Positions 32,987 through 53,575 of a stretch of 64,000 bases of DNA are shown here, in pieces. The stretch spans positions 97,213 through 161,212 of the forward strand of contig PCXQ01000004.1 of NCBI GenBank assembly GCA_002794035.1, written 5' to 3'. The notes below the pieces were generated by a model. That model did not search any database and had not been told where the DNA came from. It worked only from the letters and a program-made list of their open reading frames with translations. Numbering within the stretch: position 1 is the stretch's first letter; each line of letters opens with the position of its first letter. This DNA is from Candidatus Yanofskybacteria bacterium CG10_big_fil_rev_8_21_14_0_10_36_16 (GTDB lineage Bacteria > Patescibacteriota > Minisyncoccia > 2-02-FULL-40-12 > IGHO2-01-FULL-4-A). The position numbers and the translations under genes are program-made.

Positions 32987-33187
32987 GTGAGCCTACTGAA
33001 AGGAAACTACAATTTACCAAAAAAGAAAGAAGGTAAAGAAAAGAAAGATAGGGAAAAAGATAAAAGTCTAGAAGAAGAATTTGAAGCAGCAGCACTTAAA
33101 AAACTAGGTGGAAGTATTACTTTTGTTAAAAAGGGCAAAGGTTTTGTACATGGCACAAAAACAAAAGAAAACAAGGGAGAAGAATAA
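32987..33187 (+). CDS. Small Lys/Glu-rich protein (66 aa), GTG start with AGGAG RBS
   Basis: RBS ataggagaaacaagaGTG; stop overlaps start of next gene (ATGA). Confidence 0.3.
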   Translation: MSLLKGNYNLPKKKEGKEKKDREKDKSLEEEFEAAALKKLGGSITFVKKGKGFVHGTKTKENKGEE

Positions 33188-34188: not shown

Positions 34189-34189
34189 G

Positions 34190-35817: not shown

Positions 35818-35845
35818 AATACCCCACAGGGGTATTTTTATTTTT
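35818..35845 (+). terminator. Rho-independent terminator (atacccc-aca-ggggtat + TTTTTATTTTTT)
   Basis: Hairpin + T-run directly after rSAM stop. Confidence 0.55.
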
Positions 35846-37448
35846 TAGCTTTAACAATTATATTCCCGGAATACAAGAGTTTATCATCACCACTCAATAT
35901 TTTGGCCAGTATTTTTTGTAACAAACGTATTGGCATACTTTTTCTGACTCTGTTGGGGTAAACTCTTATTTCAGAAAAGCCAGCTTGACTAAGCAATTGA
36001 ATAATTAATGCTTTTGTATAAGCCCACTCATGAGTTAAATCTGAAAACAAGGTATGAATGCCATGAATACTATCAGCGTTTGGCATCTCTGCCACAAACA
36101 CACCCCCTTTTTCAAGATTTTTAAATATTAAATTCAACAACTCAGGCACGCGTTCTTTTTTTATGTGTTCAACAACATTTATAGCCGTAATAGCGCCGTA
36201 GTTTTCGCTTGAAGCTTTTTTTAAATAATCTATGATATCTCCCGTATTAATATTTTTTAAACCAAATTTATTCTTAGCATAATCTGTAAAATTTTTTACA
36301 ATATCTACACCCTCATAATTTTCATATCCCTGTTTTCGGCAAAAATCTAAAAATAGACCGAATCCACATCCAAGATCAATTATTTTTTTAGATTTATCCT
36401 TGGGCAATAAAGGCAAGATAAGATCATGGTAATCTTTAACTCGGGTTTTAATAAGATTCTCATCAAACATCTCATAAGTACTTTCGTAAACAACAATTTT
36501 TTGAGGTTCACTATATCCTAAATCATCTTTCTCATATTCAATATTTTTTATATCTTCTTTTTTGTTTAGGTTCATTTCATTTGATTGTATATCATGATTC
36601 TTTATAATCGACACACACGCAACAGCAGAAGCCCCTGCTATTTTGTTTAATTTCTCGTGCAAGCCAATATAACCATAAGAAGAATTATCACATTTACCAA
36701 CTTCAGATTTTTGCCAACCATTTTCAAAATATTTAAAGTAAGATACAGAACCCTCGTTATTAAAAGGCTCAATTAATCTATGGACCATTTGTTTATTAAA
36801 TTGTTGGAAAAATCCATGATTTTCATATTTGCCAAAAGGTACAGTAATTAATAATTGCCCTCCGGGTTTTAAAACTCTTTTTAATTCTAAGATTGCTTTT
36901 AAATAATCCTTACTACTGTTTTCATTATATTTATCTCCTGTATTATAAATCTCTGAATTGTCCATACCCACATGTTCGAGTGTTGAAATGCAAGTAATTG
37001 CATCAAAAAGATTATCCCTAAAAGGAAGATCCCGAATATCACCAAAAACATAAGAAACCCCTTTCCGCCAAAAACAATTTGATTCAGGCGCTAAGGTTGT
37101 AATTGTTATTTCTTTATTTTTTAATTTCTGATGATATAACAAAACCTCAAAATTTAAAGCCGAACCAGCATCTAATAATTTGCCAGATTCTTCAGATAAA
37201 TTAGCTAAAATCCATGGGTATTCAACAATTCTTTCATCAACACCCAATCCATAGCCACTAGACAAGTTACCTTTGTAAAATTTTTCCAATAGATCTTTAT
37301 TTTGGATGTTCCCTTTTATTTCTTTCCATTTGTACTCAAAATAACCCTTACTCCAAGGTTTCTTACCTCTTGTTTTATATAAATCAATTACCAACCACGC
37401 CCTGATTTTTTTATAAAATTTTAATAATTTAAAAAATATTTTCTTCAT
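35838..37448 (-). CDS. Fusion of two class I SAM-dependent methyltransferase domains
   Basis: Domain 1 LKPGGQLLITVP; domain 2 IIDLGCGFGLF...GGVFVAEMPN. Confidence 0.7.
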   Translation of the reverse strand: MKKIFFKLLKFYKKIRAWLVIDLYKTRGKKPWSKGYFEYKWKEIKGNIQNKDLLEKFYKGNLSSGYGLGVDERIVEYPWILANLSEESGKLLDAGSALNFEVLLYHQKLKNKEITITTLAPESNCFWRKGVSYVFGDIRDLPFRDNLFDAITCISTLEHVGMDNSEIYNTGDKYNENSSKDYLKAILELKRVLKPGGQLLITVPFGKYENHGFFQQFNKQMVHRLIEPFNNEGSVSYFKYFENGWQKSEVGKCDNSSYGYIGLHEKLNKIAGASAVACVSIIKNHDIQSNEMNLNKKEDIKNIEYEKDDLGYSEPQKIVVYESTYEMFDENLIKTRVKDYHDLILPLLPKDKSKKIIDLGCGFGLFLDFCRKQGYENYEGVDIVKNFTDYAKNKFGLKNINTGDIIDYLKKASSENYGAITAINVVEHIKKERVPELLNLIFKNLEKGGVFVAEMPNADSIHGIHTLFSDLTHEWAYTKALIIQLLSQAGFSEIRVYPNRVRKSMPIRLLQKILAKILSGDDKLLYSGNIIVKAKK

Positions 37449-37474: not shown

Positions 37475-38662
37475 CTATCTAAAAAGATAAATCTCGTCAT
37501 ATACATCGTTTACGGGACTCACCAGTCTCCTAATATTTATTCCGCTTTTAATATCATTAAAAAATAATGTCTTATTAAGACCCAGGAGGGGTTCTAATAT
37601 GTTTTTATAAAACCTATTCGCCTTATTAATTTTAAAACTTGCAAGATCTACAAAATCTAAGCTGGCTGTATCAAAATGAAATTTTAGATTCGCATATGTC
37701 ATAAAATTTATTTTTATATTATTTTTAAAATAAGACATCATACAATTTTCAACAAATTCAAAATAACTAAACCCAATCAATATATCAGAAGATTTTACTG
37801 GCAATTTTTTAATTTTATTAGATAATAAAATACTATTTAAAATTGTTTTTGGTTTAAGAGAATAAAAAAATCTTGGTAAAATAATTATTGTATCAAAATA
37901 ATCTCTAATATTTGTTTTGTGTTTCTCAGACCAACGATGATGATTAGAAATTACTAAATTAATCTTTTTAGTATAATCAATTTCTTTCATTAAAATAGCC
38001 AATGCAACAACTGCGGGCACATATCTTGTCTCGGCAACAGACAACCAAACTGAGCCCTTGTTTTTATTAAAAACACCCCTAAGTTTATTTTCCAATATTT
38101 TGTTTTCTTTTATTTCTTTTTGATTATTTACACAGTCAGATCCAATGTTTTTAATAAAAAAATTGTCTGGCATATCCCCAAACCAAAGCTGCATAAAACC
38201 ATAAGTTTGCTCATCAAAACAATTTAAAAACCCCCTAAAAAACACGTGGGAGTTTATCCCGAAATTATAAGAAGATATAGAAGAAGTAGAACAAACAGAA
38301 AAAGTACTATCAATATTTTTTTTATTTTTCCATAAAAAATCCTCTGATGATTCCCCGTTCCTAAAAAAAGTAAAACCATCTAATTTTAACTGTTTAAATT
38401 CATCGGTTTCGTCAGGGTGGGGTTTGTAATACAACTTATGCCCTTTATACTTTTTTTTTATATATTCAAGACATTGATTAGTTTTTTTAACGAATTCTTT
38501 AACATTTAAATTCCTAATATTTTTAAAATCAGCCCCAAAAAAAACAATGCAATTTGGCTCTACTGTGGGAGATTTTTGTTTTTTTTCTAATATATAATAA
38601 GGGTGGGATACCTTAAAAATGTTTTTTTTAGTCCAGTTAACACCACTTTTTTTTAAATACAT
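37475..38662 (-). CDS. Uncharacterised protein family A (paralog of 51373..52575); candidate nonulosonic-acid transferase with HP motif
   Basis: About 40 percent identity to 51373..52575 (shared YKPHPDETDE/YKAHPHETDE, HHRW, RWFYSLKP, SYFKNN, IIEPLLGLN). Confidence 0.45.
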   Translation of the reverse strand: MYLKKSGVNWTKKNIFKVSHPYYILEKKQKSPTVEPNCIVFFGADFKNIRNLNVKEFVKKTNQCLEYIKKKYKGHKLYYKPHPDETDEFKQLKLDGFTFFRNGESSEDFLWKNKKNIDSTFSVCSTSSISSYNFGINSHVFFRGFLNCFDEQTYGFMQLWFGDMPDNFFIKNIGSDCVNNQKEIKENKILENKLRGVFNKNKGSVWLSVAETRYVPAVVALAILMKEIDYTKKINLVISNHHRWSEKHKTNIRDYFDTIIILPRFFYSLKPKTILNSILLSNKIKKLPVKSSDILIGFSYFEFVENCMMSYFKNNIKINFMTYANLKFHFDTASLDFVDLASFKINKANRFYKNILEPLLGLNKTLFFNDIKSGINIRRLVSPVNDVYDEIYLFR

Positions 38663-38670
38663 AATTAAAA

Positions 38671-39663
38671 TTATATAATTTTTTCTATTTTTTTTACATT
38701 TATATTATCGCTGGATGAAAATTTTAAATCTGTGCCAATTTTTTCAAAACCGTCATAAAACCTTGGTGCAAAATCAAGATTGTGAATACTGCTTGTGGGC
38801 ACAAGCACGAACATTTCTTTATTGGACCATATTTCTTTATTCCAATCATTGTCACCAGCAAGATCCTCATGTAATTTATCACCAGCGCGGTCTCCTATAT
38901 ATTTTATTTTTATATTTCCCCTTGGATAATATTTTTTTATAAAAATATTTGCCAAATCACCCATGCTGGCTGATGGCATTTTTAAAATAAATATTTCACC
39001 TCCTTGAGATAATTGTGACGCCTTAAGAATTAATTTAATAGATTGTTGTATAGACATAAAAAATCTAGTAGCGTCTTTGTTGGTTACTTTAATTTTACCG
39101 CCAACTTCTGCCTGCTTCTTCCACATTGTCAAAACTGATCCATCCGACCATGCCACATTACCAAATCTAACACATGAAAGCTTAATCTTGTCTGATAAAT
39201 AAAAATTAGAATTTATAAATAATTTCTCCATCATTAATTTTGAAACACCCAACACATTAAAAGGATTAGCAACCTTATCTGTAGAAATAGCAATTACTTT
39301 TTGTACTCCATTGTGTAAAGCAGCATCTATAATATTATGCGATCCAATAATGTTTGTCTTCATGGCTTCGGATGGATTATATTCACAAAAAGGCACATGC
39401 TTAAGTGCTGCTGTATGAAAAACCACATCAACCCCCTTAAATGCAAGCTGCAATCTATCTCGGTCTCTTATGTCACCAATAAGCATACTTAAATTTTTAG
39501 GATATTTAAGCTTTTCTAAAAGGTTATATTGTCGAGTTTCATTTCTAGATAAAACTCTAACCTGCTTAGGGTTAAACCTTAAAATCTGCATTACTAATTC
39601 TGAACCAACACTACCAGTTCCCCCAGTTACTAAAATTGTTTTCCCAATAAATTCGTTAACCAT
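38671..39663 (-). CDS. UDP-GlcNAc 4,6-dehydratase, PseB/LegB/CapD family
   Basis: ILVTGGTGSVGSEL, HTAALKHVP, ISTDKVANP motifs of PseB/FlaA1 family. Confidence 0.8.
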   Translation of the reverse strand: MVNEFIGKTILVTGGTGSVGSELVMQILRFNPKQVRVLSRNETRQYNLLEKLKYPKNLSMLIGDIRDRDRLQLAFKGVDVVFHTAALKHVPFCEYNPSEAMKTNIIGSHNIIDAALHNGVQKVIAISTDKVANPFNVLGVSKLMMEKLFINSNFYLSDKIKLSCVRFGNVAWSDGSVLTMWKKQAEVGGKIKVTNKDATRFFMSIQQSIKLILKASQLSQGGEIFILKMPSASMGDLANIFIKKYYPRGNIKIKYIGDRAGDKLHEDLAGDNDWNKEIWSNKEMFVLVPTSSIHNLDFAPRFYDGFEKIGTDLKFSSSDNINVKKIEKII

Positions 39664-40771
39664 TTTTTAAAATATTAATTAATTTTTTACTTATAATTTT
39701 TATGTCTTTTTCTTTTAACCCGATATAAAATGGTAAGGCCAAAGAAGAATCACTTACTAATTCTGAAACACTATAATCCCCCTTTTTATAACCAAACATC
39801 TTTTTATAAAAACTAAACAAATGTATAGAAGGCAAATATGGCTTAGTGCTTATTCCAATTTTTGCCAACCTCAACATAATGTTATCCCTCTTTACTCTAG
39901 TATACCCCTTCAATCTAACAACATATACAAACCAAGTATGCTTATTATTAGGTCCCATTTGAGGCAAAATTATCAAATCATCGTGTTTAGATAAATATTT
40001 ATTATAAAGCAATGCTATTTTTTCTCGTTCTCTTAATAAAAAATTGAGTTTGTCTAGCTGGGTCAGACCAAGAGCCGCACTCATTTCATCCATTCTATAA
40101 TTATATCCAAGCCTCTTGTGGTCTAACCAGCGCATATCTTCTGCCCTCCCTTGGTTTCTTAAACTCCTACATGTGTTGTAAATCTTTTTTGAATTTGTAA
40201 CCAACATTCCACCCTCTCCTGTTGTTATTTGTTTGTTTGGGTAAAAAGCAAATACAGCAGATTCTCCGAATGTTCCCGCATTTTTATTTTTATACTTAGC
40301 TCCGATAGACTCACAAGCATCTTCTATAATTTTAAGGTTGTGTTTTTTTGCTATTTTTTTTATTGAGTCCATATCTGCTGTTTGACCAAAAATATGAACT
40401 ACCAAAATAGCTTTTGTATTTTTTGTTATTTTTTCCTCTATTTTTTGAGGATCAATATTGTAAGTTGCAGGATCAATATCTACAAAGACTGGCTTTGCAT
40501 TAACATATAATATGCAGTTTGCTGAAGCAATAAAAGAAAAAGGCGATGTTATTATTTCATCGCCAGATTTTATTTCCGCTGCAATCATGGCCAAGTGTAA
40601 TCCTGCAGTACCACTAGACACAGCACATGCATATTTAACTCCTATAATTTCAGCGAATTTTGACTCAAATTTATTTATAAAAGGTCCGATACTCAAGATA
40701 CCAGAAGTTAAAACATTCTGAATGTTTTTTTTCTCTATATTTGTTATGAAAGGTTTTGCGATTAGATACTT
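39656..40771 (-). CDS. DegT-family PLP-dependent aminotransferase (PseC/LegC-like)
   Basis: DegT fold; likely start MKYLIAKPF at 40771 (ATGA overlap with upstream gene). Confidence 0.75.
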   Translation of the reverse strand, partial: KYLIAKPFITNIEKKNIQNVLTSGILSIGPFINKFESKFAEIIGVKYACAVSSGTAGLHLAMIAAEIKSGDEIITSPFSFIASANCILYVNAKPVFVDIDPATYNIDPQKIEEKITKNTKAILVVHIFGQTADMDSIKKIAKKHNLKIIEDACESIGAKYKNKNAGTFGESAVFAFYPNKQITTGEGGMLVTNSKKIYNTCRSLRNQGRAEDMRWLDHKRLGYNYRMDEMSAALGLTQLDKLNFLLREREKIALLYNKYLSKHDDLIILPQMGPNNKHTWFVYVVRLKGYTRVKRDNIMLRLAKIGISTKPYLPSIHLFSFYKKMFGYKKGDYSVSELVSDSSLALPFYIGLKEKDIKIISKKLINILKNG

Positions 40772-41550
40772 CATCTGTTTAAACGATTGGATAAATATTT
40801 TAAAATCTTTTTGTTTATTAATGTGACTTCTTGATCTCCTATAATTAATTTCGCACCGCAATAAGGCGGAAAGAAAAAAGCTCTTATTTTTCTATCCATC
40901 TCTTCGGCACTGTCTTCGTTTAAATTAATTTCTTTGTTTCTTTCAAGATCTTTTTTGCTCCAATAAACACCCCCTAAATTTGAAGTGGTTATTACTTCAT
41001 CACCTTCAATAAATAGTTGAATTACCTCCTTAAATAATTCCAATAAATAATCTTGCGATTTCTCCTCCAAAGAAAGTGCATTCTCTGTAACGGGGCTTAT
41101 TGGAAATTTCTTGACTTTAATAATCGGGCCAGCATCAAATTCTTCAGAATCAATAAAATGAGCGCTAACTCCATAATCCTCTCTTTTGTCTAATATTGCC
41201 GTATTATACCCTGCACGCCCCTTATAATCTGGCAATGGGGCAGGATGAAAATTAATACACCCTACTTGAGGTAAATTAATTAGAGGGTCTCTTATTCTCT
41301 TCCAATATAGATAAGAAATAACCAAATCAACATTATTAATTGATGTGTCCTTTTGTCTAATTAAATCATAAATATAACCCTCTGTTACAATAGGAATACC
41401 CAATGCTAAAGCAGTATCCTTTAATTTGATTTTGAAAGCCTCATTGGGATCAGCAACCACAAAAGGTACTTCTATACCGTTATTCAACAACCATTTTAAT
41501 GCCATTGAAGCACCAGGTTTTCTCCCCATTAAAATAACTTTTTTAATCAT
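40771..41550 (-). CDS. Formyltransferase-domain protein (putative sugar N-formyltransferase)
   Basis: N-terminal formyl_transf domain with INFHPAPLPDYKGRAG (HxSLLPxxRG-type) motif. Confidence 0.65.
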   Translation of the reverse strand: MIKKVILMGRKPGASMALKWLLNNGIEVPFVVADPNEAFKIKLKDTALALGIPIVTEGYIYDLIRQKDTSINNVDLVISYLYWKRIRDPLINLPQVGCINFHPAPLPDYKGRAGYNTAILDKREDYGVSAHFIDSEEFDAGPIIKVKKFPISPVTENALSLEEKSQDYLLELFKEVIQLFIEGDEVITTSNLGGVYWSKKDLERNKEINLNEDSAEEMDRKIRAFFFPPYCGAKLIIGDQEVTLINKKILKYLSNRLNR

Positions 41551-41628: not shown

Positions 41629-42783
41629 CTAAATCTTAGCATGGGTAAATTTTTTATAAAATAAATTGTTTTTATTAATATTTTTTTCTAAAATTTTAAC
41701 AATCTTTTTGCTGGCAGTACCGTCACCATAAGGATTTTTAGACTTAGAAATAATTTGTTTAAAATCCCTGGACAAAGCTATGGAAATTGCTTTTTTAATA
41801 TTTTTAAAAGTATAATCACAATTTACAACATTTTCGGCATGTTCCCTGCCCAGCTGTCTATTACCAACATTTACCACCGGAAGTTTAAAAAAACTTGATT
41901 CCATGATTCCCGAGCTTGAATTTCCAATCATAATGTCAGCATGCTTCATAACATTAAGGTAAATTTCTCTATCTAAATTTTTAAATATATGAAATTCTTT
42001 ATTTCCTCTGTATTTATTTATTTCACTTATTATAATATCCTTACCAGTATCTGAATTTGGATAAATTATAATTTTTTCTCCATCCTCCTTTTCAATAGCT
42101 TTCAAAAGTGGCTCAATTTGATTAACAAATGAAATATTATCAAGCGGTGTAGGATGCTGAATCATTAAAAACCACTTTTTATTAACTTTTAAACCCAGTT
42201 TAGTAGCCAATGTTTTTTTTGGCACATATTTTAAAACCCTGGCTTCATCAAGACCTGGAGCCCCCACCAAGAAAACCCTATTTTTTTCCTCTCCCAAAAG
42301 AATAATTCTTTTGTAGCTTTTTGGAGTTGCAGCAAAATGCAAATGGGCAAATTTTGTAATAGAATGTCTTATATACTCATCAACAACATGCCCAGTAACA
42401 TCCCCTCCGTGTATATGCCCAATGGGTATTCTTAAATGAGAACCTACGATGGCACCGGCAAATTGCTCGCCCCTATCACCCAAAACAAGTATCATATCAG
42501 GTCTATTTTTCATGCAATATTTCTTTATACCTATTACATCATTAGATAAGGCATCCATCATATCACTATTATAAGGTGTGTTTATAATACACTTTATAGG
42601 AAACCCATCTTTTTTTATATCATTTATTGTAAACCCAAATTTTTTTTGAGTATGCATTCCAGTAACCAACAATTCTGGCTCTAATTTGTTGCTAATTTTA
42701 ATTTCCTTAATAACTGGCCTAAACAAGCCATAATCAGCTCTTGTTCCTGTAATTATTAAAATTCTTTTTTTATGTTTAGACAT
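41629..42783 (-). CDS. UDP-N-acetylglucosamine 2-epimerase (hydrolysing), NeuC/LegG family
   Basis: GDRGEQFAGAIVGSHLRIPIGHIHGGDVTG NeuC-type motif. Confidence 0.8.
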   Translation of the reverse strand: MSKHKKRILIITGTRADYGLFRPVIKEIKISNKLEPELLVTGMHTQKKFGFTINDIKKDGFPIKCIINTPYNSDMMDALSNDVIGIKKYCMKNRPDMILVLGDRGEQFAGAIVGSHLRIPIGHIHGGDVTGHVVDEYIRHSITKFAHLHFAATPKSYKRIILLGEEKNRVFLVGAPGLDEARVLKYVPKKTLATKLGLKVNKKWFLMIQHPTPLDNISFVNQIEPLLKAIEKEDGEKIIIYPNSDTGKDIIISEINKYRGNKEFHIFKNLDREIYLNVMKHADIMIGNSSSGIMESSFFKLPVVNVGNRQLGREHAENVVNCDYTFKNIKKAISIALSRDFKQIISKSKNPYGDGTASKKIVKILEKNINKNNLFYKKFTHAKI

Positions 42784-43858
42784 AGTGTGCTTTCTTAATC
42801 AAAGTATCTTTTTTTATGTACTTAGTAGATTTTTTACCCAAAATTAAATTAAAATATTTTGGCGGAAGTCCATTGCCGGGTCTTTTCACGCCAATATTTT
42901 TTTCAGAAAACAAGTCTCCCTTTTTAATATCTTTTGTAGCTACTACACTTTTTGCTGCAGCTTTTATAATTGTTTTTTCGTTGAATGTTAAAGTTTTTTC
43001 TCCAGAACCCAATGCTTGTTCTATGTTTCTAATCGCCTCCACTAATCTTTTTAGCTCATCCGGTTCCAAAGATGCCTTATGATCAGGACCTGGCAAATTT
43101 CTATCGAGAGTAAAATGTTTTTCTATTACACAAGCCCCCAAAGAAACTGCCGCAACAGCGGCCTCTATACCAAGGGTATGATCTGAATACCCAAAAAGTA
43201 CATCGTTTTTATTCCCGAGCGTTACCATGGCTCGTATATTAGCTTGGTCAAAAGGACATGGATAACTTGTTGTACACTGGAGTACAACAAGTTTATTATT
43301 CCCGGTTTTCCTAATAGCTTCTATAGACTCTGCAACAGAGTTTAAATCCTGCATCCCAGTAGAAAGGATTACGGGCAATTGCCATTCAGCCATCTTAGAT
43401 AAATATGGAATATTGTTTGCATCAGAAGAACCAACTTTTATTGCCTTAACCTTAATAGACTTTAAAAAAAATGCATCATCTAACGAAAAAGGCGTAGATA
43501 AAAAAAACAATCCTTTATCTTCAGCATATTTTTTAAGTTTCCTGTGCCATGACCTGGGTAACATTAATTTTTTTAGCATTTGATAATGGCTTTCTTTGCC
43601 TATATTTTTACTCTGATATTTTGCTTTGGGAGCATTTTTGATAATTAATGTTTCTGGATTAAATGTTTGAAATTTAATAGCATCTGCTCCGGATTTAGAA
43701 GCTATACTTATTAATTTTTTAGCCATCTTAAAATTACCATTATGATTAACTCCTGCCTCGGCTATTATGAAAGCTTTATGTCCTGGGCCAATTTTTATGT
43801 TCCCTATTTTTATAAATTTATTAAATTTTTCCATGTTAGATTGTCCAACCACCATCAA
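42776..43858 (-). CDS. Nonulosonic acid synthase (NeuB/LegI/PseI family)
   Basis: IAEAGVNHNGNFKMAKKLISIASKSGADAIKFQTF NeuB signature plus C-terminal SAF domain. Confidence 0.85.
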   Translation of the reverse strand: MMVVGQSNMEKFNKFIKIGNIKIGPGHKAFIIAEAGVNHNGNFKMAKKLISIASKSGADAIKFQTFNPETLIIKNAPKAKYQSKNIGKESHYQMLKKLMLPRSWHRKLKKYAEDKGLFFLSTPFSLDDAFFLKSIKVKAIKVGSSDANNIPYLSKMAEWQLPVILSTGMQDLNSVAESIEAIRKTGNNKLVVLQCTTSYPCPFDQANIRAMVTLGNKNDVLFGYSDHTLGIEAAVAAVSLGACVIEKHFTLDRNLPGPDHKASLEPDELKRLVEAIRNIEQALGSGEKTLTFNEKTIIKAAAKSVVATKDIKKGDLFSEKNIGVKRPGNGLPPKYFNLILGKKSTKYIKKDTLIKKAHYV

Positions 43859-44594
43859 TGACTAAATTGTGACCTGTTATATAGCCAGAATCATCTGATG
43901 ATAAAAATAAAAATGCTCCAACTAAATCACTCGGTCGAGCCATTCGATTGCCTAATAAAACTTTTTTAGAATAATTTTTTATAAATTTTTGGGGTTGATT
44001 ATTAAAAACCCCCCCAGGAGACAAAGAATTAACCCTTATATTATATTCACCTAAATAACTGGCTAGGTATTTTGTTAAATTTATAATAGCTCCCTTAACA
44101 GCAACGTATTCTACTGTTGTCCCCATGGCCATGTTCACACCTTTATAAATATCGAATCTTGGAGCAGAAAAACCATAAATAGATGCGACATTAATTATGT
44201 TCCCACTTCTTTGTTTTTTCATTATTTTAGCAACCTCCTTGGAAGTTAAAAAATAGCCACCAAGATGCATCCCCACATTTTCACAAAAATCATCATAAGT
44301 TACATCTTCCATTTTTCTACCATAATTTTTATTTTTTGGATAAGCACTATTTACCAAGACATCGATTTTGCCAAATTTTTGAACAATTTTTTGAAAAGAT
44401 TCTGAAACTGATTTTTCATTTGTTATGTCACATTTTAAAAACAATACTTTTTTAGCAAAAGTTTCCTCAGTCATATCCAAAACTGCAACATTCGCACCAT
44501 TTTCAATAGCTGCATTTACAAAAGCCCCCCCAATAAGACCTGCTCCCCCTGTTATAACAACTACTTTATTTTTTAATCTTAATTTTGGTTTCAT
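43836..44594 (-). CDS. Short-chain dehydrogenase/reductase (PtmA-like)
   Basis: VVITGGAGLIGGA Rossmann and YxxxK catalytic region. Confidence 0.7.
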   Translation of the reverse strand: MKPKLRLKNKVVVITGGAGLIGGAFVNAAIENGANVAVLDMTEETFAKKVLFLKCDITNEKSVSESFQKIVQKFGKIDVLVNSAYPKNKNYGRKMEDVTYDDFCENVGMHLGGYFLTSKEVAKIMKKQRSGNIINVASIYGFSAPRFDIYKGVNMAMGTTVEYVAVKGAIINLTKYLASYLGEYNIRVNSLSPGGVFNNQPQKFIKNYSKKVLLGNRMARPSDLVGAFLFLSSDDSGYITGHNLVIDGGWTI

Positions 44595-45861
44595 TTTTTT
44601 TAGTAAAAAATTCTATTGCTTTCTTTAAAGCATTAACTTGTTTTTTCATATCTTTTTCTATGCCCTGATTAGTCGTAAACTGCATAAGCTGTGGTTGTAT
44701 TTTTTCAGTATTAGGACATTTTATATTATTAGCAAAACCAATTAATTCTTTATCTTTTAAATTAAACCCTGGGAAATATTTTCCGCTACGATTAAGCATC
44801 TTAATAACTGGCTCCTTGTAAAGAGGCACCCAAGAAGCATAAATGCCATCCCCGCCAAATTCCATAAACTTTTTCCTGAAATCATACCAACTCACACCCA
44901 GCTTTTCTTCTCCTTCATATCTTATAGCTAAGGTCCAATAAGAATTATTATATCCTTTTGGTACTTTTTGTGGGATCAACCAATCGCACTTAGTCTCTTT
45001 TATTGCTTTAAGATATTTTTGTGCTATCTCCCGTCTTTTGCTTACAAGATAATCAATTTTTTCAAGTTGAGCTAACCCAACAGCTGCTGCAACCTCTGGC
45101 AATCTATGATTCCAACCCAAAGAATCATGGCGTTCATACTTGGGATCCTGAAATGAATCTTTTCCTTTTCTAACCTGCCCATTAACAGCTTTTACATTTT
45201 TATACCCAAGACAACCAAACTTTCTCATTCTTTCAGCAAATTTTTCATTGTTTGTAATCAAAATACCACCATCACCAGTTGAAAGATGTTTCGAATTTTC
45301 AAAACTAAAACTTCCAACATCTCCGATTGTGCCGCCTATTCTACCTTTTTCATCAGTACCCAAATAACACTGCGCGCAATCCTCCAGCACATAAAGATTG
45401 TATTTTTTTGCAATCTTCATAATTGCATCCATATCACAAACCTGCCCGTAAAGATGTACTGGCATTATTGCTTTTGTTTTTTTTGTAATTTTTCTTTCAA
45501 CATCTTTTGGGTCCATTAAAAAAGTATCGGGGTCAACATCAGCAAACACCGGCTTAGCTCTGTTATATAAAACAGCAAAAGCACATGAAACAACGGTAAT
45601 TGATGGGACAATTACTTCATCTCCAGGACCAACACCAAAAGCAGTAAGTGCTTGATTCAATGTTGTGGTGCCCGAAGTAGATGTTATTGCATATTTAACT
45701 CCAAAACGTTTGGTAAACTCTGATTCTAGACGTTGGTTCATGTTGCCACTAGTTGAACTACCGAAACCAGAATCCAAAACCTCTTTTACATATCTCAATT
45801 CGTTACCTCGAAACCTCCAACTGCGACTACTTTTTTTAAATTTTATTTTATTTTTTTTCAT
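44566..45861 (-). CDS. DegT-family PLP-dependent aminotransferase (second copy in module 1)
   Basis: DegT-fold sequence, 431 aa with N-terminal extension. Confidence 0.7.
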   Translation of the reverse strand: MKKNKIKFKKSSRSWRFRGNELRYVKEVLDSGFGSSTSGNMNQRLESEFTKRFGVKYAITSTSGTTTLNQALTAFGVGPGDEVIVPSITVVSCAFAVLYNRAKPVFADVDPDTFLMDPKDVERKITKKTKAIMPVHLYGQVCDMDAIMKIAKKYNLYVLEDCAQCYLGTDEKGRIGGTIGDVGSFSFENSKHLSTGDGGILITNNEKFAERMRKFGCLGYKNVKAVNGQVRKGKDSFQDPKYERHDSLGWNHRLPEVAAAVGLAQLEKIDYLVSKRREIAQKYLKAIKETKCDWLIPQKVPKGYNNSYWTLAIRYEGEEKLGVSWYDFRKKFMEFGGDGIYASWVPLYKEPVIKMLNRSGKYFPGFNLKDKELIGFANNIKCPNTEKIQPQLMQFTTNQGIEKDMKKQVNALKKAIEFFTKKNETKIKIKK

Positions 45862-46585
45862 TTTTTTTGTGTCTCATTATGGCGCGAACAACTTTTAAAT
45901 CATAAATGTCATCCACTTCATAATTTTGCCACCTTTCAATAAAATAAGGCATTATCCTTTTGGGATAAAAAGTTCTTTCTTTTTGTAAGGTTTTAGTCTT
46001 ACAAAGGTAAACTACGCCATATGGGAAATATGTCCTAGGCAAATCTTGCCTTCTCATAGTTAATCTTGAAATATTAATAAGAGATTTAATAAATCCCTTT
46101 TCGATTTTTTTAGCATAAAATGGACTTTCTAAATTAATCTCACCAACACTAACAACGGCATCGGTTTTATTCCAGTTATTAATCAATATTTTTATCGCAT
46201 TATCTATGTCTTGTGTTTTTCGTAACGGTGAAGTGGGCTCTAGCAAGGCTACTGCGTCATATTTTTCTTCGTCCTTACTTAACTGATCCAGTGTATATAG
46301 AACAGCGTCGATTGTTGGCGATTTATCAGTTGCTAATTCTTGTGGTCTTAAAAATGGAACATCTGCTCCATATTTATTCGCAACCCTAACAATCTTTTTA
46401 TGATCAGTTGACACTATTATTCTTGTAATTAGCTTTGATTTTTGAGCAGAGTTAATTGAATGAGCAATAAGGGGCAACCCTCCGATATTAATAATATTTT
46501 TACCAGGAAGACCTTTTGAGCCACCTCGAGCTGGAATAAACGCCAATATCTTTTTAGTTTTATTTTTAATTATTGTTTTAATCAT
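45848..46585 (-). CDS. Acylneuraminate cytidylyltransferase-like (CMP-nonulosonic acid synthetase, NeuA/LegF family)
   Basis: ILAFIPARGGSKGLPGKN CTP_transf_3 motif. Confidence 0.8.
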   Translation of the reverse strand: MIKTIIKNKTKKILAFIPARGGSKGLPGKNIINIGGLPLIAHSINSAQKSKLITRIIVSTDHKKIVRVANKYGADVPFLRPQELATDKSPTIDAVLYTLDQLSKDEEKYDAVALLEPTSPLRKTQDIDNAIKILINNWNKTDAVVSVGEINLESPFYAKKIEKGFIKSLINISRLTMRRQDLPRTYFPYGVVYLCKTKTLQKERTFYPKRIMPYFIERWQNYEVDDIYDLKVVRAIMRHKKNEKK

Positions 46586-46655: not shown

Positions 46656-47629
46656 ATGACCAATACTACTTCATATCTGGGTCTTTGCTACCATTATATA
46701 AGATCTCGGCAATCACAAAAAGATTTTCCTAGAATTCTAGGAAGCAGCCAAGAAGAATTCATTAAACACGTAGAAGCGTTAAAAAAACAATTCAGGATAA
46801 TCGATCCAAAAGAATTGATAGATTTACATTATGGAAAACACACTCTACAAGACGCAAGACCTGGTATTCTAGTTACATTTGATGATGGCCTGTCAGATCA
46901 CTATCTTGCAGCACAAATTTTAAATTCTTTAGGAATAAATGCATTATTTTTTGTGCCGACATGCGTGTTTTCAGAAAACCTTCCAGCAAATCCAATAATT
47001 ATTCACTACGGTATTGCCATTTTTGGAGTAAAATATTTCCTTGAAGTTTACAATCATATAGTTAGTAATGAAAATTTAAGCGAACACCAAATATTATACA
47101 ACAACCGATTAGATCCTTGGGAAATAATAAAAAGATTAAATCAAAGTTTAAATATGAATTACATCACGTTGCATCTAGAAAAATACTCTTGGAAATATAC
47201 GACTTACTATTACTCAAGAATGCACACGACATAATGAATGTAATGCACTTAAACCATGGCCAACTAAAAGCAATGATAAAAATGGGTCACAGTATAGGCG
47301 TTCACACCCACACACATGTTTCTGTTGCAGCGTCTAAATTAAATCACACAGAAGCTTACAAAGAATTAGTATGGCCCAAAATATATCTAGAAGACCAATT
47401 TAGCTGTAATGTATTTGCATTTAGCTATCCTTTTGGAGAAAGACAGGACTGTCTTAACACAAGCCAATTCTTAGAAAAAACCGGTGATTATAAATTGGCT
47501 TTTACGATTGAGGAAATTGTAAACAACAAAGAAACTCCCCCGCTTGAACTTGGTAGATATATGCCAACAAGCCATGATACAGATAAAAGTTTGCTACAAA
47601 AACTAAATCAAATCTTGGGAGGTGCATAA
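46656..47629 (+). pseudogene. Polysaccharide deacetylase (NodB-type) split by a frameshift into two overlapping ORFs (46656..47234 and 47117..47629)
   Basis: NodB motif 1 TFDDGLSDHY in first ORF, His motif HSIGVHTHTH in second ORF in a different frame. Confidence 0.5.
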
Positions 47630-48449: not shown

Positions 48450-49163
48450 TTAGCGGGCTTTTTTCTTTCTTTGCTTCAAAATTTTTCTAAATTCCAAAAG
48501 CTCTTCTTTGTAATTGATATCCATGCTGGCATGAGCTGGCATAATATATGGGATCGTTTCCTGTGTAAACATGCTTTTCCTTTTTATAAATTCTTTTGTG
48601 CTAATTATGTAAATTGATCCATCGGGCCAAAATACATCAGGCAACTCATGTCTATTAGCAAAAGGAAATTTATCATCAACGGCTCCCTTTAAAAAACCTC
48701 TTTCATTAACCAAGAAAATTTTAAGATAATTAGAGCTCATTTTTCTAACGCTTATTAAAGACTTGGCGTTACTTTTTAAAAATGATGCGATTGATTTATC
48801 TATATCTATACGCCTCCTCAAGGGAGATGTTGGCTGCAACAGAATAATTAAATCTGGATTATAATTTTCATTTTCTTTTAAATAATCTAATGCGTGCATT
48901 ATAGCATGCTCAAACCTAGAGTTATCTCTTGCTAAATGTTCTGGTCTTTTTATAACCTGAGCTCCATATTTTTTTGATATATTTAAAATTTTATCATCGT
49001 CAGACGAAACAACAACTTTGTCTATATAAGAAGACTCGAGTGCCGGCCTAATTGAATACGCAATCAAGGGCATACCTCCAGCCATTGCAATATTTTTACC
49101 AGGAAGACCTTTTGAGCCACCCCTAGCTCCTATAAATGCTAAAATTTTATATTTTTTACTCAT
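48450..49163 (-). CDS. Acylneuraminate cytidylyltransferase-like (CMP-nonulosonic acid synthetase), module 2
   Basis: ILAFIGARGGSKGLPGKN motif; overlaps upstream neuC-like by 4 nt. Confidence 0.8.
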   Translation of the reverse strand: MSKKYKILAFIGARGGSKGLPGKNIAMAGGMPLIAYSIRPALESSYIDKVVVSSDDDKILNISKKYGAQVIKRPEHLARDNSRFEHAIMHALDYLKENENYNPDLIILLQPTSPLRRRIDIDKSIASFLKSNAKSLISVRKMSSNYLKIFLVNERGFLKGAVDDKFPFANRHELPDVFWPDGSIYIISTKEFIKRKSMFTQETIPYIMPAHASMDINYKEELLEFRKILKQRKKKAR

Positions 49164-50332
49164 ATATTTTCTAATTTCAAATCTTTAAATTGTTTTTGGA
49201 TTGTTTTATTCCACACACTTCGAGTTTTTAGTATTTTTAAAAATTTTTTATGGCTATCACCCTTGCCAAACATCTTTACTGATTTAAACCTTATCTTTTT
49301 TGAAGAAAACTTATTTATACAACCCAAGATTTCACTCTCTTTATAATTACAATTAAACACACCCTTTGTTGCCTTTATCCTATTATTTTGCCTACTTCCT
49401 ATGTTTATAGCAGGCACACCACAATAAGGCGCTTCTCTAACCCCGGCACTTGAATTACCAATAATAAAGTTTGCATTTTTCATCAAGGTCAAAAAATATT
49501 CAAACCTTATTGACTGAAATATTTTAAATCTAGAGTTACCCATTAAATTTGTATTATATTCATTACTTATCATATCAGTTCCTGGATCATTATTTGGATA
49601 TATTACGATATAATTCATATCTGAATTAAGCAATGTATTAACAAGGGTTTTTATGTATTTTTTAGTTAAATCAATTTCTGAAGTAACTGAATGATAAATC
49701 AAAATTGCGTATTTATTAAATTTGATTCCATACCTTTTTTTAACAATTTCTAGAGAAGGCAATTTTTTAGAATTCAAAACGTCTATATCGGGAGATCCTA
49801 TAACATGAATACTGCTGGAATCTTCACCCATCTGCAAAAGTCGCGTCTTAGCCTCTTGATTTGCCACAAAATGTATATGTGACATTTTGCTTATAGCGTG
49901 CCTAATATGTTCATCAATTGTACCGGATACTTCCCCTCCCTCTATGTGAGCAACAAGAATATTATTTAAAGACCCCGCCAAAGCACCTGCCAAAGCCTCC
50001 ACTCTATCGCCATGAACAACAACCATGTCAGGTTTAAATTCTTTAAAATAATTACCAAGCCCAGATATAGTATTAGCTAAAATACTTTCCATGGATGTAT
50101 TTTCTGTATGATTAATATATTTATAAATATTAGGGAAGCCATGTTTTTCAATTTCATGAACTGTATGCCCGTAACTAGCAAGCATGTGCATACCCGTAGC
50201 AAAAATATGAACATCGAATATCTTGGAATCAAAAAGGGCCTTGATTAAGGTTTTAATTTTACCGAAATCAGCCCTTGTCCCGGTTATAAAAACAATCCTT
50301 TTTTTATTTATATTTTTGTTATATGTAGCCAT
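49160..50332 (-). CDS. UDP-N-acetylglucosamine 2-epimerase (hydrolysing), NeuC family, module 2
   Basis: NeuC-type GDRVEALAGALAGSLNNILVAHIEGGEVSG motif. Confidence 0.8.
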   Translation of the reverse strand: MATYNKNINKKRIVFITGTRADFGKIKTLIKALFDSKIFDVHIFATGMHMLASYGHTVHEIEKHGFPNIYKYINHTENTSMESILANTISGLGNYFKEFKPDMVVVHGDRVEALAGALAGSLNNILVAHIEGGEVSGTIDEHIRHAISKMSHIHFVANQEAKTRLLQMGEDSSSIHVIGSPDIDVLNSKKLPSLEIVKKRYGIKFNKYAILIYHSVTSEIDLTKKYIKTLVNTLLNSDMNYIVIYPNNDPGTDMISNEYNTNLMGNSRFKIFQSIRFEYFLTLMKNANFIIGNSSAGVREAPYCGVPAINIGSRQNNRIKATKGVFNCNYKESEILGCINKFSSKKIRFKSVKMFGKGDSHKKFLKILKTRSVWNKTIQKQFKDLKLENI

Positions 50333-51372
50333 TTTAACTGTTGGTTATTGGCAATATTACACTTAGCTTTTTTACCCAAAAGTTTTTCAAAATTTACAGC
50401 TTTTATCTCGCCTGTACCTGGCCTTTTAACCCAAATATTATTCATCGTTAATTTTTCGCCTTTCTTTATATCTCTAATAGCAACAACGCAGGCATATGCA
50501 AAATCAATCGTTGGTTTCTCTTCTTTGAGAACTGACTTAGTGCCACCCCTGGCCTCATATACAGCTCGGGTTCCCACTATTAACTCAGAAAGCTCTTTGG
50601 GATCAATTGATATAGAAACATCTGGTCCTGGCCATTTTTTATTTGAAGTAAAATGCTTTTCTATTATTGATGCCCCAAGAGCAATAGCGGCAAAAGATGT
50701 GTAATTACCAAGAGAATGATCACTTAACCCAACAACTGCTCTTGGAAATGCTTTTTTAATCTGCTCAATTGCACCGAGATGGACCTTATTATAAGGAGTG
50801 GGATACATTGAGGTACAATGCAAAATTGCATGAGGAACCTTAGCTTGTTCTAAAATCTTAACAGCTGGTTTAAGTGAAGCAATATTATTCATGCCAGAGC
50901 TTAGAATAACTGGTTTACCGAATGAAGCGATATGCTTAACAAGAGGATAATTATTGCATTCACCAGAACCTATCTTAAATGCCTTGACCTTCATACGATT
51001 AAGACGATCTGCTGCTGCTCTTGAAAATGGGGTTGAAAGATAAATCATGCCTAAACTTTCAACATATTTTTTAATCTCTCTATCTTCCTTTTCACTCAAA
51101 GCACATCGAGACATTATATTCCAAATTGACTCTTTGGCATTTCCGGGAATTACCTTTTTGGCCTCTGGGATCATTTCATCATCAATTACATGGGCCTGAA
51201 ACTTAACGCACTCGGCACCACTTTTGTAAGCATCGAAAACCATTTTCTTGGCCTTTTTAACACTACCCTCGTGGTTTATACCAATTTCAGCAATAACAAG
51301 TGGAGGATGATTTGGCCCTATTTCTCTTTTTCCTATTTTGAAATTAATATCATTCATATTTTTATAAAACAA
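50308..51372 (-). CDS. Nonulosonic acid synthase (NeuB family), module 2
   Basis: IAEIGINHEGSVKKAKKMVFDAYKSGAECVKFQAH plus SAF domain. Confidence 0.85.
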   Translation of the reverse strand: MFYKNMNDINFKIGKREIGPNHPPLVIAEIGINHEGSVKKAKKMVFDAYKSGAECVKFQAHVIDDEMIPEAKKVIPGNAKESIWNIMSRCALSEKEDREIKKYVESLGMIYLSTPFSRAAADRLNRMKVKAFKIGSGECNNYPLVKHIASFGKPVILSSGMNNIASLKPAVKILEQAKVPHAILHCTSMYPTPYNKVHLGAIEQIKKAFPRAVVGLSDHSLGNYTSFAAIALGASIIEKHFTSNKKWPGPDVSISIDPKELSELIVGTRAVYEARGGTKSVLKEEKPTIDFAYACVVAIRDIKKGEKLTMNNIWVKRPGTGEIKAVNFEKLLGKKAKCNIANNQQLKWLHITKI

Positions 51373-52575
51373 TTAATGCACATAAACTTGATCATAAATA
51401 TCATTAATTGGCTTTAAATATCTGTCGAAATTTGAAACTCTTACTGGGTCTTCATAAAAAATCACCCTGTTAAGACCCAGCAATGGCTCTATAATTTTTG
51501 AATTAAAAGTAACTCCCTTACGAGTAAAATATTTTTTAAAAAATGAATCTTCTTTAGGACCATAGTTAAATTCCAAAACTTCTTTTTTTATAAACGCAAT
51601 TTTAAAATTGTTTTTAAAATAAGACAAAAAACAATTCTCTGTAAAGGAAGTAAAGTTAAAACCTATTATAATATCTCCTGGTTTTATTGGTGCCTTTTTG
51701 ATATTAAGAGCTGTTCTTATCCTACCGTAAATTCTCGCGGGCTTAAGAGAATAAAACCACCTTGGATATTCAAGCAAACAATCGAAATAATCACCAACCT
51801 CTTTAATGTCCATTACATCCCATCTGTGGTGCTTTTCTATAATTAACCCCACTTTATGTTGTAGTGATATTTTTTTTATTGCTCTAGCTAAAACTATTAT
51901 ATTAGGCAAAAGACCTGGATCACCAACAATAAACCAAGCAGTGCCAGCATATTTTGATAAAACATCTAAAAATTTTTCGGAAAAAACGGAATCCAATTGA
52001 TTTGATATATGTGCCCTACTTGCTTTTACCTCATTTTTTAAATCGGAAATGAAAAATTCTTTAGGCATTCCTTCAAAATAACGCCACAATCCTTTTCTCT
52101 TTTCAATAGTATAAGCAGATTCAATAACCGGTAAAAAAATATGAGCATCTATACCCATTTTATGAGCAGTCATGGATGCGCTTGATGCAGTAGAAAAAAT
52201 ATGTTTTATCCTGTCGTAATTTTTCATAATAACAAACTCGGCGACAGTTTTCTCTTTTAAAACATTGAAACCTCTAAGATCTAGAAGCGATGCCTCATCT
52301 GTTTCATGAGGATGAGCCTTGTACACTAATTTATAACCTGGATATTGCTTTCTTATATAATCAAGGCAAAGATTTGTTTTTTTAATAATTTCTTCCTCAC
52401 CTGAATAAATACTGGGTAAATTTTTAAAAGTAACACCCCAAAACATTACCAAATCTTTGGATTGTTGTTTTTTTTGTAAATCATCCCCGAACTGTTGCAA
52501 TAAATAATAAGGGATTGATATATTGAAAATATTTTTTTTGTCTGTATTAACCCCTGGTGGCAAATTTATTTTCAT
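51373..52575 (-). CDS. Uncharacterised protein family A (paralog of 37475..38662); candidate nonulosonic-acid transferase
   Basis: Shared motifs with 37475..38662; immediately upstream of and contiguous with neuB-like. Confidence 0.45.
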   Translation of the reverse strand: MKINLPPGVNTDKKNIFNISIPYYLLQQFGDDLQKKQQSKDLVMFWGVTFKNLPSIYSGEEEIIKKTNLCLDYIRKQYPGYKLVYKAHPHETDEASLLDLRGFNVLKEKTVAEFVIMKNYDRIKHIFSTASSASMTAHKMGIDAHIFLPVIESAYTIEKRKGLWRYFEGMPKEFFISDLKNEVKASRAHISNQLDSVFSEKFLDVLSKYAGTAWFIVGDPGLLPNIIVLARAIKKISLQHKVGLIIEKHHRWDVMDIKEVGDYFDCLLEYPRWFYSLKPARIYGRIRTALNIKKAPIKPGDIIIGFNFTSFTENCFLSYFKNNFKIAFIKKEVLEFNYGPKEDSFFKKYFTRKGVTFNSKIIEPLLGLNRVIFYEDPVRVSNFDRYLKPINDIYDQVYVH

Positions 52576-52579
52576 AAAA

Positions 52580-53575
52580 CTATACCTCCTTTATCTTTTT
52601 AAATACTATCCTCATATGGTTACTCAATTTTTGATTATCAATTATTGCTTGCATTACAGGTATAAATTCTTTCATCTTTGCAGGATAATTAAACTTATCA
52701 TCATATTGTTTCATAAATAGATAATCCATTAAATCCAGCCCATAATAATCAATTGAAGCAACTTCAAACCCTGTTTTTTTAGCTAAATAATCTAAAGATC
52801 TATTATCATAAAAACAAAGATGTAAAAAAGGTCTTAGCAAATTCTGCCTCTCACCCATTAGCATAAACGCCACGGAATGTATGTTCGGAGTATATGCTAA
52901 AACATAACCCCTTTTATCTAGCTTGGCATTTAATGTTTTGAAAAAAGAAACTGGATTTTCTAAATGTTCTATGACATCAAATAAGGTAATCGCATTGTAA
53001 TAATTTTCTGGCTCTTCTGAAAGATCATTACTGTCAGCATTTAAACCCATTTCTTTGCACATGCCCACCAAAAAATCAGAAACTTCCAACCCTTTATTTA
53101 TAATCTTTTTATCTTTTAGATGACTAATAAAATAACCTGGGCCACAACCCACATCTAAAACCTTAGCATCAGTCTTTGAAAGACCAGTTTTTTCCAATAA
53201 ATAGTTCAACCTTTCTGTTGCATAATTTTTCTTCCTGTAATCATAGGTTGCATAAACCTGTTTTTTTATATTGTCGTTTGCTTTCTCGTCATCATTAAGC
53301 TCTGCCATGTCTATTTTTGAAAAATCAATACTTGGACAAACAGCTCCGCATTTTTTACATTCCAAAAGTTCATATGTTTTTTTATAGATAAGGAATTTAT
53401 CTCCTTTTGTGTTGCCACAAAGAAAACATTTAAATTGGCTCGGCGTTAAAATTGCCTTTTTAAATTTATTAAAAACATGTGTATCATAATCCACAGTTTT
53501 TTTATAAAAATTTTTAGACCTAAGTTTTATGGGGTCTAAATTAAATATTTTGTAATTTTTTAATATATTTCTCAT
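52580..53575 (-). CDS. Class I SAM-dependent methyltransferase with N-terminal Cys cluster
   Basis: VLDVGCGPGYF motif I; CFLCGN...CKKCG zinc-ribbon-like N-terminus. Confidence 0.7.
   Translation of the reverse strand: MRNILKNYKIFNLDPIKLRSKNFYKKTVDYDTHVFNKFKKAILTPSQFKCFLCGNTKGDKFLIYKKTYELLECKKCGAVCPSIDFSKIDMAELNDDEKANDNIKKQVYATYDYRKKNYATERLNYLLEKTGLSKTDAKVLDVGCGPGYFISHLKDKKIINKGLEVSDFLVGMCKEMGLNADSNDLSEEPENYYNAITLFDVIEHLENPVSFFKTLNAKLDKRGYVLAYTPNIHSVAFMLMGERQNLLRPFLHLCFYDNRSLDYLAKKTGFEVASIDYYGLDLMDYLFMKQYDDKFNYPAKMKEFIPVMQAIIDNQKLSNHMRIVFKKIKEV

Follow-up and report, generated by a model that had tools for sequence, protein, structure and literature searches.

A predicted WbkC-like sugar N-formyltransferase, and a second formyltransferase paired with a deacetylase, in a nonulosonate locus of Candidatus Yanofskybacteria

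Many microbes cap their surface glycans with nonulosonic acids, whose N-acyl groups determine charge, antigenicity and recognition by phages or hosts; for acyl groups other than acetyl, the enzymes responsible are mostly unknown. A 64 kb stretch of Candidatus Yanofskybacteria bacterium CG10_big_fil_rev_8_21_14_0_10_36_16 (Patescibacteria, candidate-phyla radiation [CPR]; contig PCXQ01000004.1, positions 97,213 to 161,212), referred to here as the window, raises the question of which acyl group its sugars carry. In one set of nonulosonate genes (module 1), a formyltransferase gene, FT1, is found close to the genes for sugar transamination and 2-epimerisation, and a second formyltransferase gene, FT2, lies nearby. 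An initial annotation had placed both open reading frames (ORFs) exactly and had read them as signs of a possible N-formylated nonulosonate; each ORF starts with ATG (Table 1). We find this reading supported as a prediction: the surface sugar is probably N-formylated, and FT1 adds a new member, as yet uncharacterised, to the sugar N-formyltransferases, distinct from the known nonulosonate formyltransferase PseJ, in a NeuC/NeuB-type gene cassette typical of CPR bacteria.

FT1 contains the formyltransferase domain assigned to it (Pfam Formyl_trans_N, E = 3.1e-17, 63.3 bits against a cutoff of 26.1), and the database record of a protein identical to FT1 carries the name 'formyl transferase'. The Asn-His-Asp triad, proposed at the outset as a check, is present as N100, H102 and D139 (codons 41251-41253, 41245-41247 and 41134-41136) and is invariant across 39 homologs, in the alignment of which a C-terminal AFFFPP motif is also invariant. 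Of the HxSLLPxxRG motif described initially, both proteins carry variants, N100-F-H102-PAPLPDYKG in FT1 and N127-L-H129-LGLSPYYRG in FT2, and these folate-loop variants (HPAPLPDYKG and HLGLSPYYRG) are each conserved within their own family.

Among solved structures, the closest relative of FT1 is WbkC, the GDP-perosamine 4-N-formyltransferase of Brucella melitensis (PDB 5vyr-5vyu). In single-sequence searches of the PDB, WbkC (E = 4.9e-12) is followed by WlaRD (2.2e-11), Fmt (2.6e-10) and PseJ (1.3e-5). With a profile of the FT1 family, WbkC (5vys) is again the best match (E = 5.5e-22), ahead of Fmt (9.6e-19), ArnA and WlaRD, and the match is full-length (positions 9-249 against 11-246 of 261), including the FFPP motif of WbkC. 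The AlphaFold2 model of FT1 has a predicted local distance difference test score (pLDDT) of 94.9; its Foldseek comparison with WbkC gives TM-scores of 0.79-0.80 (query, TMq) and 0.81-0.84 (target, TMt) with a root-mean-square deviation of 2.6-3.0. By Foldseek E-value Fmt, ArnA and WbkC are alike; reciprocal matching singles out WbkC, indicating that the C-terminal subdomain of FT1 is short, as in the sugar enzymes, and not a full tRNA-binding domain. On sequence and model evidence together, FT1 is most likely an N10-formyl-tetrahydrofolate-dependent sugar N-formyltransferase closest to WbkC. The two enzymes would share a 4-amino-4,6-dideoxy sugar nucleotide as substrate; they differ in that they are only about 24% identical, that WbkC serves O-antigen perosamine rather than nonulosonate synthesis, and that its substrate is GDP-linked, whereas the dehydratase in the window is of a UDP-GlcNAc class.

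The position of FT1 between a sugar aminotransferase gene (listed as an ORF at 39656-40861) and a NeuC-like gene (41629-42783) was correctly described at the outset. Direct reading of the sequence shows an ATGA overlap between the FT1 stop codon and the start of the aminotransferase gene, and an AGGAG ribosome-binding site upstream of FT1. In the mechanical ORF call (39656-40861, minus strand) the aminotransferase gene starts with the TTG at 40861, giving a 91-nt overlap with FT1; the ATG at 40774 is almost certainly the true start.

A homology search with FT1 returned at least 381 clusters at 90% identity, nearly all of 250-290 aa; identities among the top 120 are 50-62%, and the members with a named source are mostly from Patescibacteria. 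Loci of relatives were gathered from contigs encoding FT1 homologs and from a scan of the GTDB genome collection, and the window proteins were mapped onto them by tblastn. The order NeuB-NeuC-FT-DegT-dehydratase is found in 15 of 22 distinct loci with a formyltransferase at least 48% identical to FT1 (one of the 15, L024, ends at a contig edge after DegT), and a DegT1-type aminotransferase (56-69% identity) directly follows the formyltransferase in 20 of the 22. The cassette is carried by Yanofsky-, Falkow-, Nomura-, Davies-, Roizman-, Magasanik-, Kaiser- and Niyogibacteria, by Saccharibacteria and by some metagenome-assembled genomes labelled Gammaproteobacteria. Cultured bacteria have remoter members of the family (36-44% identity). 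Near the formyltransferase gene of Alloalcanivorax and Pseudoalteromonas piscicida, only an aminotransferase, or an aminotransferase and a dehydratase, was detected; Thalassobacillus pellis (DSM 22784) and Rhizobium wuzhouense (W44) have nonulosonate genes there as well.

In canonical pathways the step before NeuC is catalysed by an acetyltransferase. The initial annotation expected a GNAT enzyme there, which is correct for PseH; LegH is instead a PglD-like hexapeptide acetyltransferase. Both act at the step proposed for FT1, in which the 4-amino group is acylated ahead of hydrolysis and condensation, but they use acetyl-CoA rather than formyl-tetrahydrofolate, and their folds (hexapeptide beta-helix in LegH/PglD, GNAT in PseH) are unrelated to that of FT1. 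When every ORF of at least 110 aa in the entire window was scanned with Pfam models, neither a GNAT nor a hexapeptide acetyltransferase was matched. Around 16 related cassettes, the 25 Pfam families that recur most often in 132 other ORFs include no acetyltransferase, though rarer cases are possible, and the common neighbours are GFO/IDH/MocA oxidoreductases, glutamine amidotransferases, methyltransferases and KpsS-like proteins. On the strength of these scans, a hidden acetyltransferase was rejected for the ORFs of at least 110 aa in the window and for the frequent families of the relatives. The canonical order is LegB-LegC-LegH-LegG-LegI-LegF. Taken together with the conserved synteny and the lack of an acetyltransferase, it supports FT1 as the replacement of the 4-N-acetyltransferase and strengthens the original suggestion that a formyltransferase stands where LegH would be expected.

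The surroundings of the cassette vary. Most CPR relatives (L001, L003, L005, L010, L012, L016, L018, L021 and others) have HisF/HisH-like genes and a gene of about 400 aa without a Pfam match, a set that we take to resemble genes for acetamidino-group synthesis; it is absent from the window, which has an extra aminotransferase gene instead. In one relative (L003:10783-13510 and L004:4449-7176) the dehydratase gene precedes genes for a GNAT, for another NeuB-family synthase and for a Glyphos_transf-like protein, which hints that this branch may be Pse-like and share its dehydratase and aminotransferase with the formyl branch.

FT2 was initially taken as a second enzyme of the same kind. It does carry Formyl_trans_N (45.8 bits; Table 1), but it belongs to another family with another logic, being paired with a deacetylase. 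Its triad is N127, H129 and D166 (codons 48008-48010, 48014-48016 and 48125-48127), invariant across 31 homologs, and its AlphaFold2 model (pLDDT 92.5) has the formyltransferase fold by Foldseek in more divergent form (TM-scores of 0.5-0.6). That FT1 and FT2 are recent paralogs was rejected: hhalign relates them with 85% probability over the catalytic core only. A homology search with FT2 returned at least 1690 clusters, many from marine metagenomes and one from Ca. Nitrosotenuis.

A Polysacc_deac_1 gene of about 330-340 aa lies directly upstream of FT2 in 17 of 17 loci with an FT2 at least 41% identical and upstream sequence available, and remoter FT2 members still adjoin a deacetylase homolog. 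Many of these loci also have NeuB, NeuC and CMP-transferase genes, and some are tight five-gene sets, such as NeuB-NeuC-deacetylase-FT-CMP-transferase. In the window, FT2 begins directly at the deacetylase stop, with a CMP-transferase gene on either side of the pair. A 1-nt indel within the A-run at about 47130-47134 ('ataaaaag') splits the deacetylase gene over two frames; addition of one A restores WEIIKKIKSKFKY, in agreement with the homologs. Both halves are conserved (44-52% identity in tblastn with the deacetylases of L007, L008 and L009), with the NodB motifs TFDDG and HTHTH intact. Possible explanations of the frameshift are misassembly, a phase-variable tract and very recent pseudogenisation.

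Several further genes of the window recur beside deacetylase-FT2 pairs elsewhere. Homologs of the second aminotransferase (DegT2, 431 aa; 56-61% identity) and of the PtmA-like short-chain dehydrogenase (37-44%), which in the window occupy 43836-45861 (minus strand), are found next to the pair in marine metagenome loci (L058, L062, L060, L068, L071 and L072). DegT2 matches the Kdo8N transaminase 5k8b (E = 2.5e-43), and sequence similarity suggests that DegT2 and the dehydrogenase may carry out oxidation and transamination at the level of the ulosonic acid. Two of the marine loci have a third formyltransferase-like gene right beside FT2, encoding a protein of 340-351 aa that is longer than FT1 and FT2 (L062:8772-9794, minus strand; L072:1555-2610, plus strand); nonulosonate loci with two formyltransferases are therefore not unique to the window. 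The window also encodes, at 33187-35812 (plus strand), a Maf/MptE-like protein that weakly matches PseD-like proteins and, after it, a B12-binding radical-SAM (S-adenosylmethionine) enzyme, and such a pair also adjoins deacetylase-FT2 in a Ca. Nitrosotenuis contig and a metagenome contig (L009 and L061). This hints at a gene set common to this CPR bacterium and ammonia-oxidising archaea.

N-formylated nonulosonates are known but rare, as the initial annotation had stated, and there are three precedents. PseJ of Anoxybacillus kamchatkensis (PDB 6ci2, 6ci4, 6ci5, 6edk), crystallised with UDP-4-amino-4,6-dideoxy-L-AltNAc, is cited as the formyltransferase of the Pse5Ac7Fo route. Like FT1, it is a Formyl_trans_N enzyme in a nonulosonate pathway, with the job proposed here for FT1; unlike FT1 (259 aa, with a WbkC-like C-terminal subdomain), its chains are of 192-217 aa, and it serves the Pse pathway, whereas the enzymes downstream of FT1 are of NeuC and NeuB/LegI type. 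In Halorubrum sp. PV6, 5-N-formyl-legionaminic acid has been demonstrated on glycoproteins, and a predicted formyltransferase gene (HrrPV6_1050) lies beside legG (PMC6137143). By its description, this cluster resembles module 1 in that a formyltransferase gene adjoins a NeuC-like gene in a Leg-type cluster; it differs in having the formyl group on N5, a NeuD-like acetyltransferase, and legH elsewhere, and its formyltransferase is predicted only. Ca. Kuenenia stuttgartiensis makes CMP-nonulosonates with one formylated and one free amine and with O-methylation, and its cluster (legB, legF, legC, deacetylase, formyltransferase, neuB, legF, legG) has enzyme roles assigned from context only (2026 preprint). 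FT2 is of the deacetylase-formyltransferase pair type recently noticed in that organism, a likeness drawn from gene descriptions: both clusters have two CMP-transferase genes and methylation, and in both a deacetylase-formyltransferase pair separates two sets of nonulosonate genes. One formyltransferase is described for Kuenenia, whereas the window has two, of different families.

Module 1 had been called legionaminic-like. Its back end is clearly of NeuC/NeuB type by sequence, with both enzymes above the cutoffs of TIGR03568 and TIGR03569 (Table 1), but the dehydratase and aminotransferase stay below the cutoffs of the Leg and Pse models alike. The dehydratase scores 81.8 bits on the LegB model (cutoff 475) and 294 on the PseB model (407.75), and the aminotransferase 301.7 bits on the LegC model (420) and 328.6 on the PseC model (423.5). 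Since both score slightly higher on the Pse models, 'legionaminic' is not established. By PDB match, the dehydratase lies nearer to PseB (2gn4, 226 bits) and CapE (221 bits) than to PglF (162 bits). At the position of the PseB active-site tyrosine, it has a Leu, where CapE has a Met; CapE inverts, and PglF, which also has a Met there, retains. Reading Pse or Leg stereochemistry from this active site was rejected as uninformative: Leu here and Met in CapE do not separate retention from inversion at C5.

We consider it reasonably likely that FT1 replaces the N-acetyltransferase (LegH/PglD or PseH) on a route to a 5-acetamido-7-formamido nonulosonate, and that the deacetylase and FT2 form a separate unit. 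In the order of steps proposed, the PseB/PglF-class dehydratase and the DegT aminotransferase would convert UDP-GlcNAc to UDP-4-amino-4,6-dideoxy-HexNAc, the presumed nucleotide carrier being UDP, and FT1 would formylate the 4-amino group of this putative substrate. The NeuC-type enzyme would then release and 2-epimerise the formylated sugar, the NeuB-type synthase would condense it with phosphoenolpyruvate to 5-acetamido-7-formamido-3,5,7,9-tetradeoxynon-2-ulosonic acid, and the cytidylyltransferase would yield the CMP-sugar. The CE4 deacetylase would most probably free the N-acetylated nitrogen (N5 of the nonulosonate), and FT2 would formylate an amine.

Several points weigh against this pathway. 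The functions of both the FT1 and the FT2 family are predicted throughout, and FT1 is not an ortholog of PseJ, which it matches distantly and over the catalytic core only (E = 1.3e-5 with a single sequence, 1.1e-10 with a profile). The folate loop of FT1 (HPAPLPDYKG) has a Lys in place of the canonical Arg. No Pse or Leg model gives the dehydratase or the aminotransferase a score above its equivalog cutoff, and the deacetylase partner of FT2 is frameshifted in the window. The supply of 10-formyl-tetrahydrofolate in a host with a reduced genome is not visible from the window. Finally, by analogy with Halorubrum, where the formyl group is on N5 and not N7 though the formyltransferase gene adjoins legG there too, the regiochemistry would not be fixed by gene position alone.

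That last comparison has its own reading, in which FT1 formylates the future N5 (the C2 amine of the hexosamine) as in Halorubrum, where the predicted gene has the same neighbour, and the 4-amino group stays free or is acylated by an enzyme encoded elsewhere. We regard this as very unlikely: the starting sugar is expected to be N-acetylated at C2 already, WbkC and PseJ both act on 4-amino groups, FT1 is translationally coupled to the 4-aminotransferase, and an acetyltransferase for N4/N7 is lacking in the window and among the frequent families of the related cassettes. It is extremely improbable that FT1 is a housekeeping methionyl-tRNA formyltransferase, or another folate enzyme, that lies in the locus by chance. 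Several homologs are named 'methionyl-tRNA formyltransferase' by JGI, the fmt equivalog TIGR00460 is the top NCBIfam match of FT1 by E-value, and Foldseek E-values of Fmt structures are similar to those of WbkC; yet FT1 reaches only 78.5 bits on TIGR00460 (cutoff 201.5), and TMt against Fmt is only 0.59-0.64. FT1 is also about 50 residues shorter (259 aa against 304-315 aa in solved Fmt chains), and its place inside a sugar operon is kept in the 15 loci described above. Formyl_trans_C (PF02911) was not matched by FT1 or FT2 at E-values up to 0.01, and FT2 scores 42.7 bits on TIGR00460. The identification of FT1 as Fmt, which the initial annotation had named as the outcome that would overturn it, was rejected on cutoff, missing C-terminal domain and protein length.

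Formylation could also be transient. In the lipid A Ara4N pathway formyl serves only as temporary protection, and the substrate of the CE4 enzyme is a lipid-linked sugar; ArnD is a member of the Polysacc_deac_1 family, and the N-terminal domain of ArnA is a formyltransferase. The parallel lies in a formyltransferase with a CE4 enzyme and in a 4-amino sugar downstream of a DegT aminotransferase (ArnB). By this account, formylation would pull an unfavourable transamination forward, the CE4 enzyme would be a deformylase, and the final sugar would bear a free, positively charged amine. Consistent with it are the family shared by ArnD and the CE4 enzyme, the rank of ArnA among the best PDB matches of both FT1 and FT2, the strict conservation of the CE4-FT2 pairing and the free amine on Kuenenia nonulosonates. 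The Kuenenia CMP-sugars, however, keep a formyl group on one amine, and no CE4 gene is among the frequent neighbours of FT1 cassettes in CPR relatives. We think this reading unlikely, and favour lasting formylation of the 4-amino group by FT1.

The genes discussed lie in one large glycan locus that spans about 17-63 kb of the window and also encodes GDP-mannose dehydratases, C-methyltransferases, glycosyltransferases, an ABC exporter, a Maf-like protein and a B12 radical-SAM enzyme. Module 1 (minus strand, right to left) reads CMP-transferase, DegT2, PtmA-like dehydrogenase, NeuB, NeuC, FT1, DegT, dehydratase, a 395-aa protein and a double methyltransferase; module 2 (minus strand, 53575 down to 48450) reads methyltransferase, a 400-aa paralog of the 395-aa protein, NeuB, NeuC and CMP-transferase. 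The CE4 deacetylase and FT2 genes lie between the modules on the plus strand (Table 1).

Table 1. Features of the nonulosonate modules and the intervening gene pair (window coordinates)
Feature	Coordinates	Strand	Evidence
Double SAM-methyltransferase ending module 1	35838..37448	-	Pfam Methyltransf_23 + Methyltransf_11, two domains
Unknown 395-aa protein, 3' end of module 1	37475..38662	-	No Pfam/NCBIfam match
UDP-GlcNAc 4,6-dehydratase, PseB/CapE/PglF (Polysacc_synt_2) class	38671..39663	-	Pfam Polysacc_synt_2, E 1.1e-92
DegT/PseC/LegC-type sugar 4-aminotransferase	39656..40774	-	Pfam DegT_DnrJ_EryC1, E 4.6e-119
FT1, predicted WbkC-like sugar N-formyltransferase, 259 aa	40771..41550	-	Pfam Formyl_trans_N, triad, profile, AlphaFold2, Foldseek
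NeuC/LegG-type hydrolysing NDP-HexNAc 2-epimerase, module 1	41629..42783	-	TIGR03568 422.9 bits, cutoff 235.9
NeuB/LegI-type nonulosonate synthase, module 1	42776..43858	-	TIGR03569 436 bits, cutoff 399.65; PseI model 315.7 bits, below cutoff
PtmA-like short-chain dehydrogenase	43836..44594	-	NF006619 270 bits (cutoff 255); FlagModPtmA 202.6 bits
Second DegT-family aminotransferase (DegT2), 431 aa	44566..45861	-	Pfam DegT, E 2.9e-86; PDB matches including perosamine synthetase and Kdo8N transaminase 5k8b
CMP-nonulosonate cytidylyltransferase, module 1	45848..46585	-	Pfam CTP_transf_3; PseF model 157 bits, below cutoff
CE4 (NodB-type) deacetylase, FT2 partner, frameshifted	46656..47629	+	Pfam Polysacc_deac_1 on second half; tblastn
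FT2, predicted formyltransferase of second family, 268 aa	47630..48436	+	Pfam Formyl_trans_N, E 7.5e-12
CMP-nonulosonate cytidylyltransferase, module 2	48450..49163	-	Pfam CTP_transf_3; PseF model 131 bits
NeuC-type hydrolysing 2-epimerase, module 2	49160..50332	-	TIGR03568 418 bits, above cutoff
NeuB-type nonulosonate synthase, module 2	50308..51372	-	TIGR03569 382 bits, just below cutoff 399.65
Unknown 400-aa protein, paralog of 37475-38662	51373..52575	-	36% identity, E 1e-89
SAM-methyltransferase heading module 2	52580..53575	-	Pfam Methyltransf_23, E 1.6e-21

The 395-aa and 400-aa paralogs close one nonulosonate module each, beside a methyltransferase gene. Neither matches Pfam or NCBIfam models, and a sequence search of the PDB gave nothing significant for them. 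A homolog of the 395-aa protein follows the dehydratase in another Yanofskybacteria locus (L015). By their position, the paralogs are candidates for a new family of nonulosonate transferases. Their identity with the amidotransferase-like genes of about 400 aa in relatives was rejected, as similarity was not found.

The idea of N-formylated nonulosonates is not new. Our literature search found N-formyl-legionaminic acid only in the Halorubrum work and one citing paper, and no report of nonulosonic acids for Patescibacteria/CPR. FT1 represents a large formyltransferase subfamily, still uncharacterised, that is tied to a five-gene cassette in CPR bacteria. The deacetylase-FT2 pair is more widespread than FT1 and links the CPR locus to marine archaeal loci and to Kuenenia chemistry. 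Both families are widespread and easy to assay, and in vitro work on them would widen the enzymatic toolbox for N-modified CMP-nonulosonates.

A more speculative, rather doubtful extension is that the two families make up an acetyltransferase-free route. FT1 would formylate N7 at the nucleotide-hexose stage, and the deacetylase and FT2 would swap the N5 acetyl group for formyl or leave the amine free. The product would be a 5,7-di-N-formyl or 5-amino-7-formamido nonulosonate, possibly O-methylated, made by two unrelated formyltransferase families at hundreds of loci in uncultured Patescibacteria and marine Thaumarchaeota. We know of neither sugar having been described from any cultured organism. 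If this were true, ultra-small symbionts and ammonia-oxidising archaea would carry in such sugars a widespread surface determinant that has gone unrecognised.

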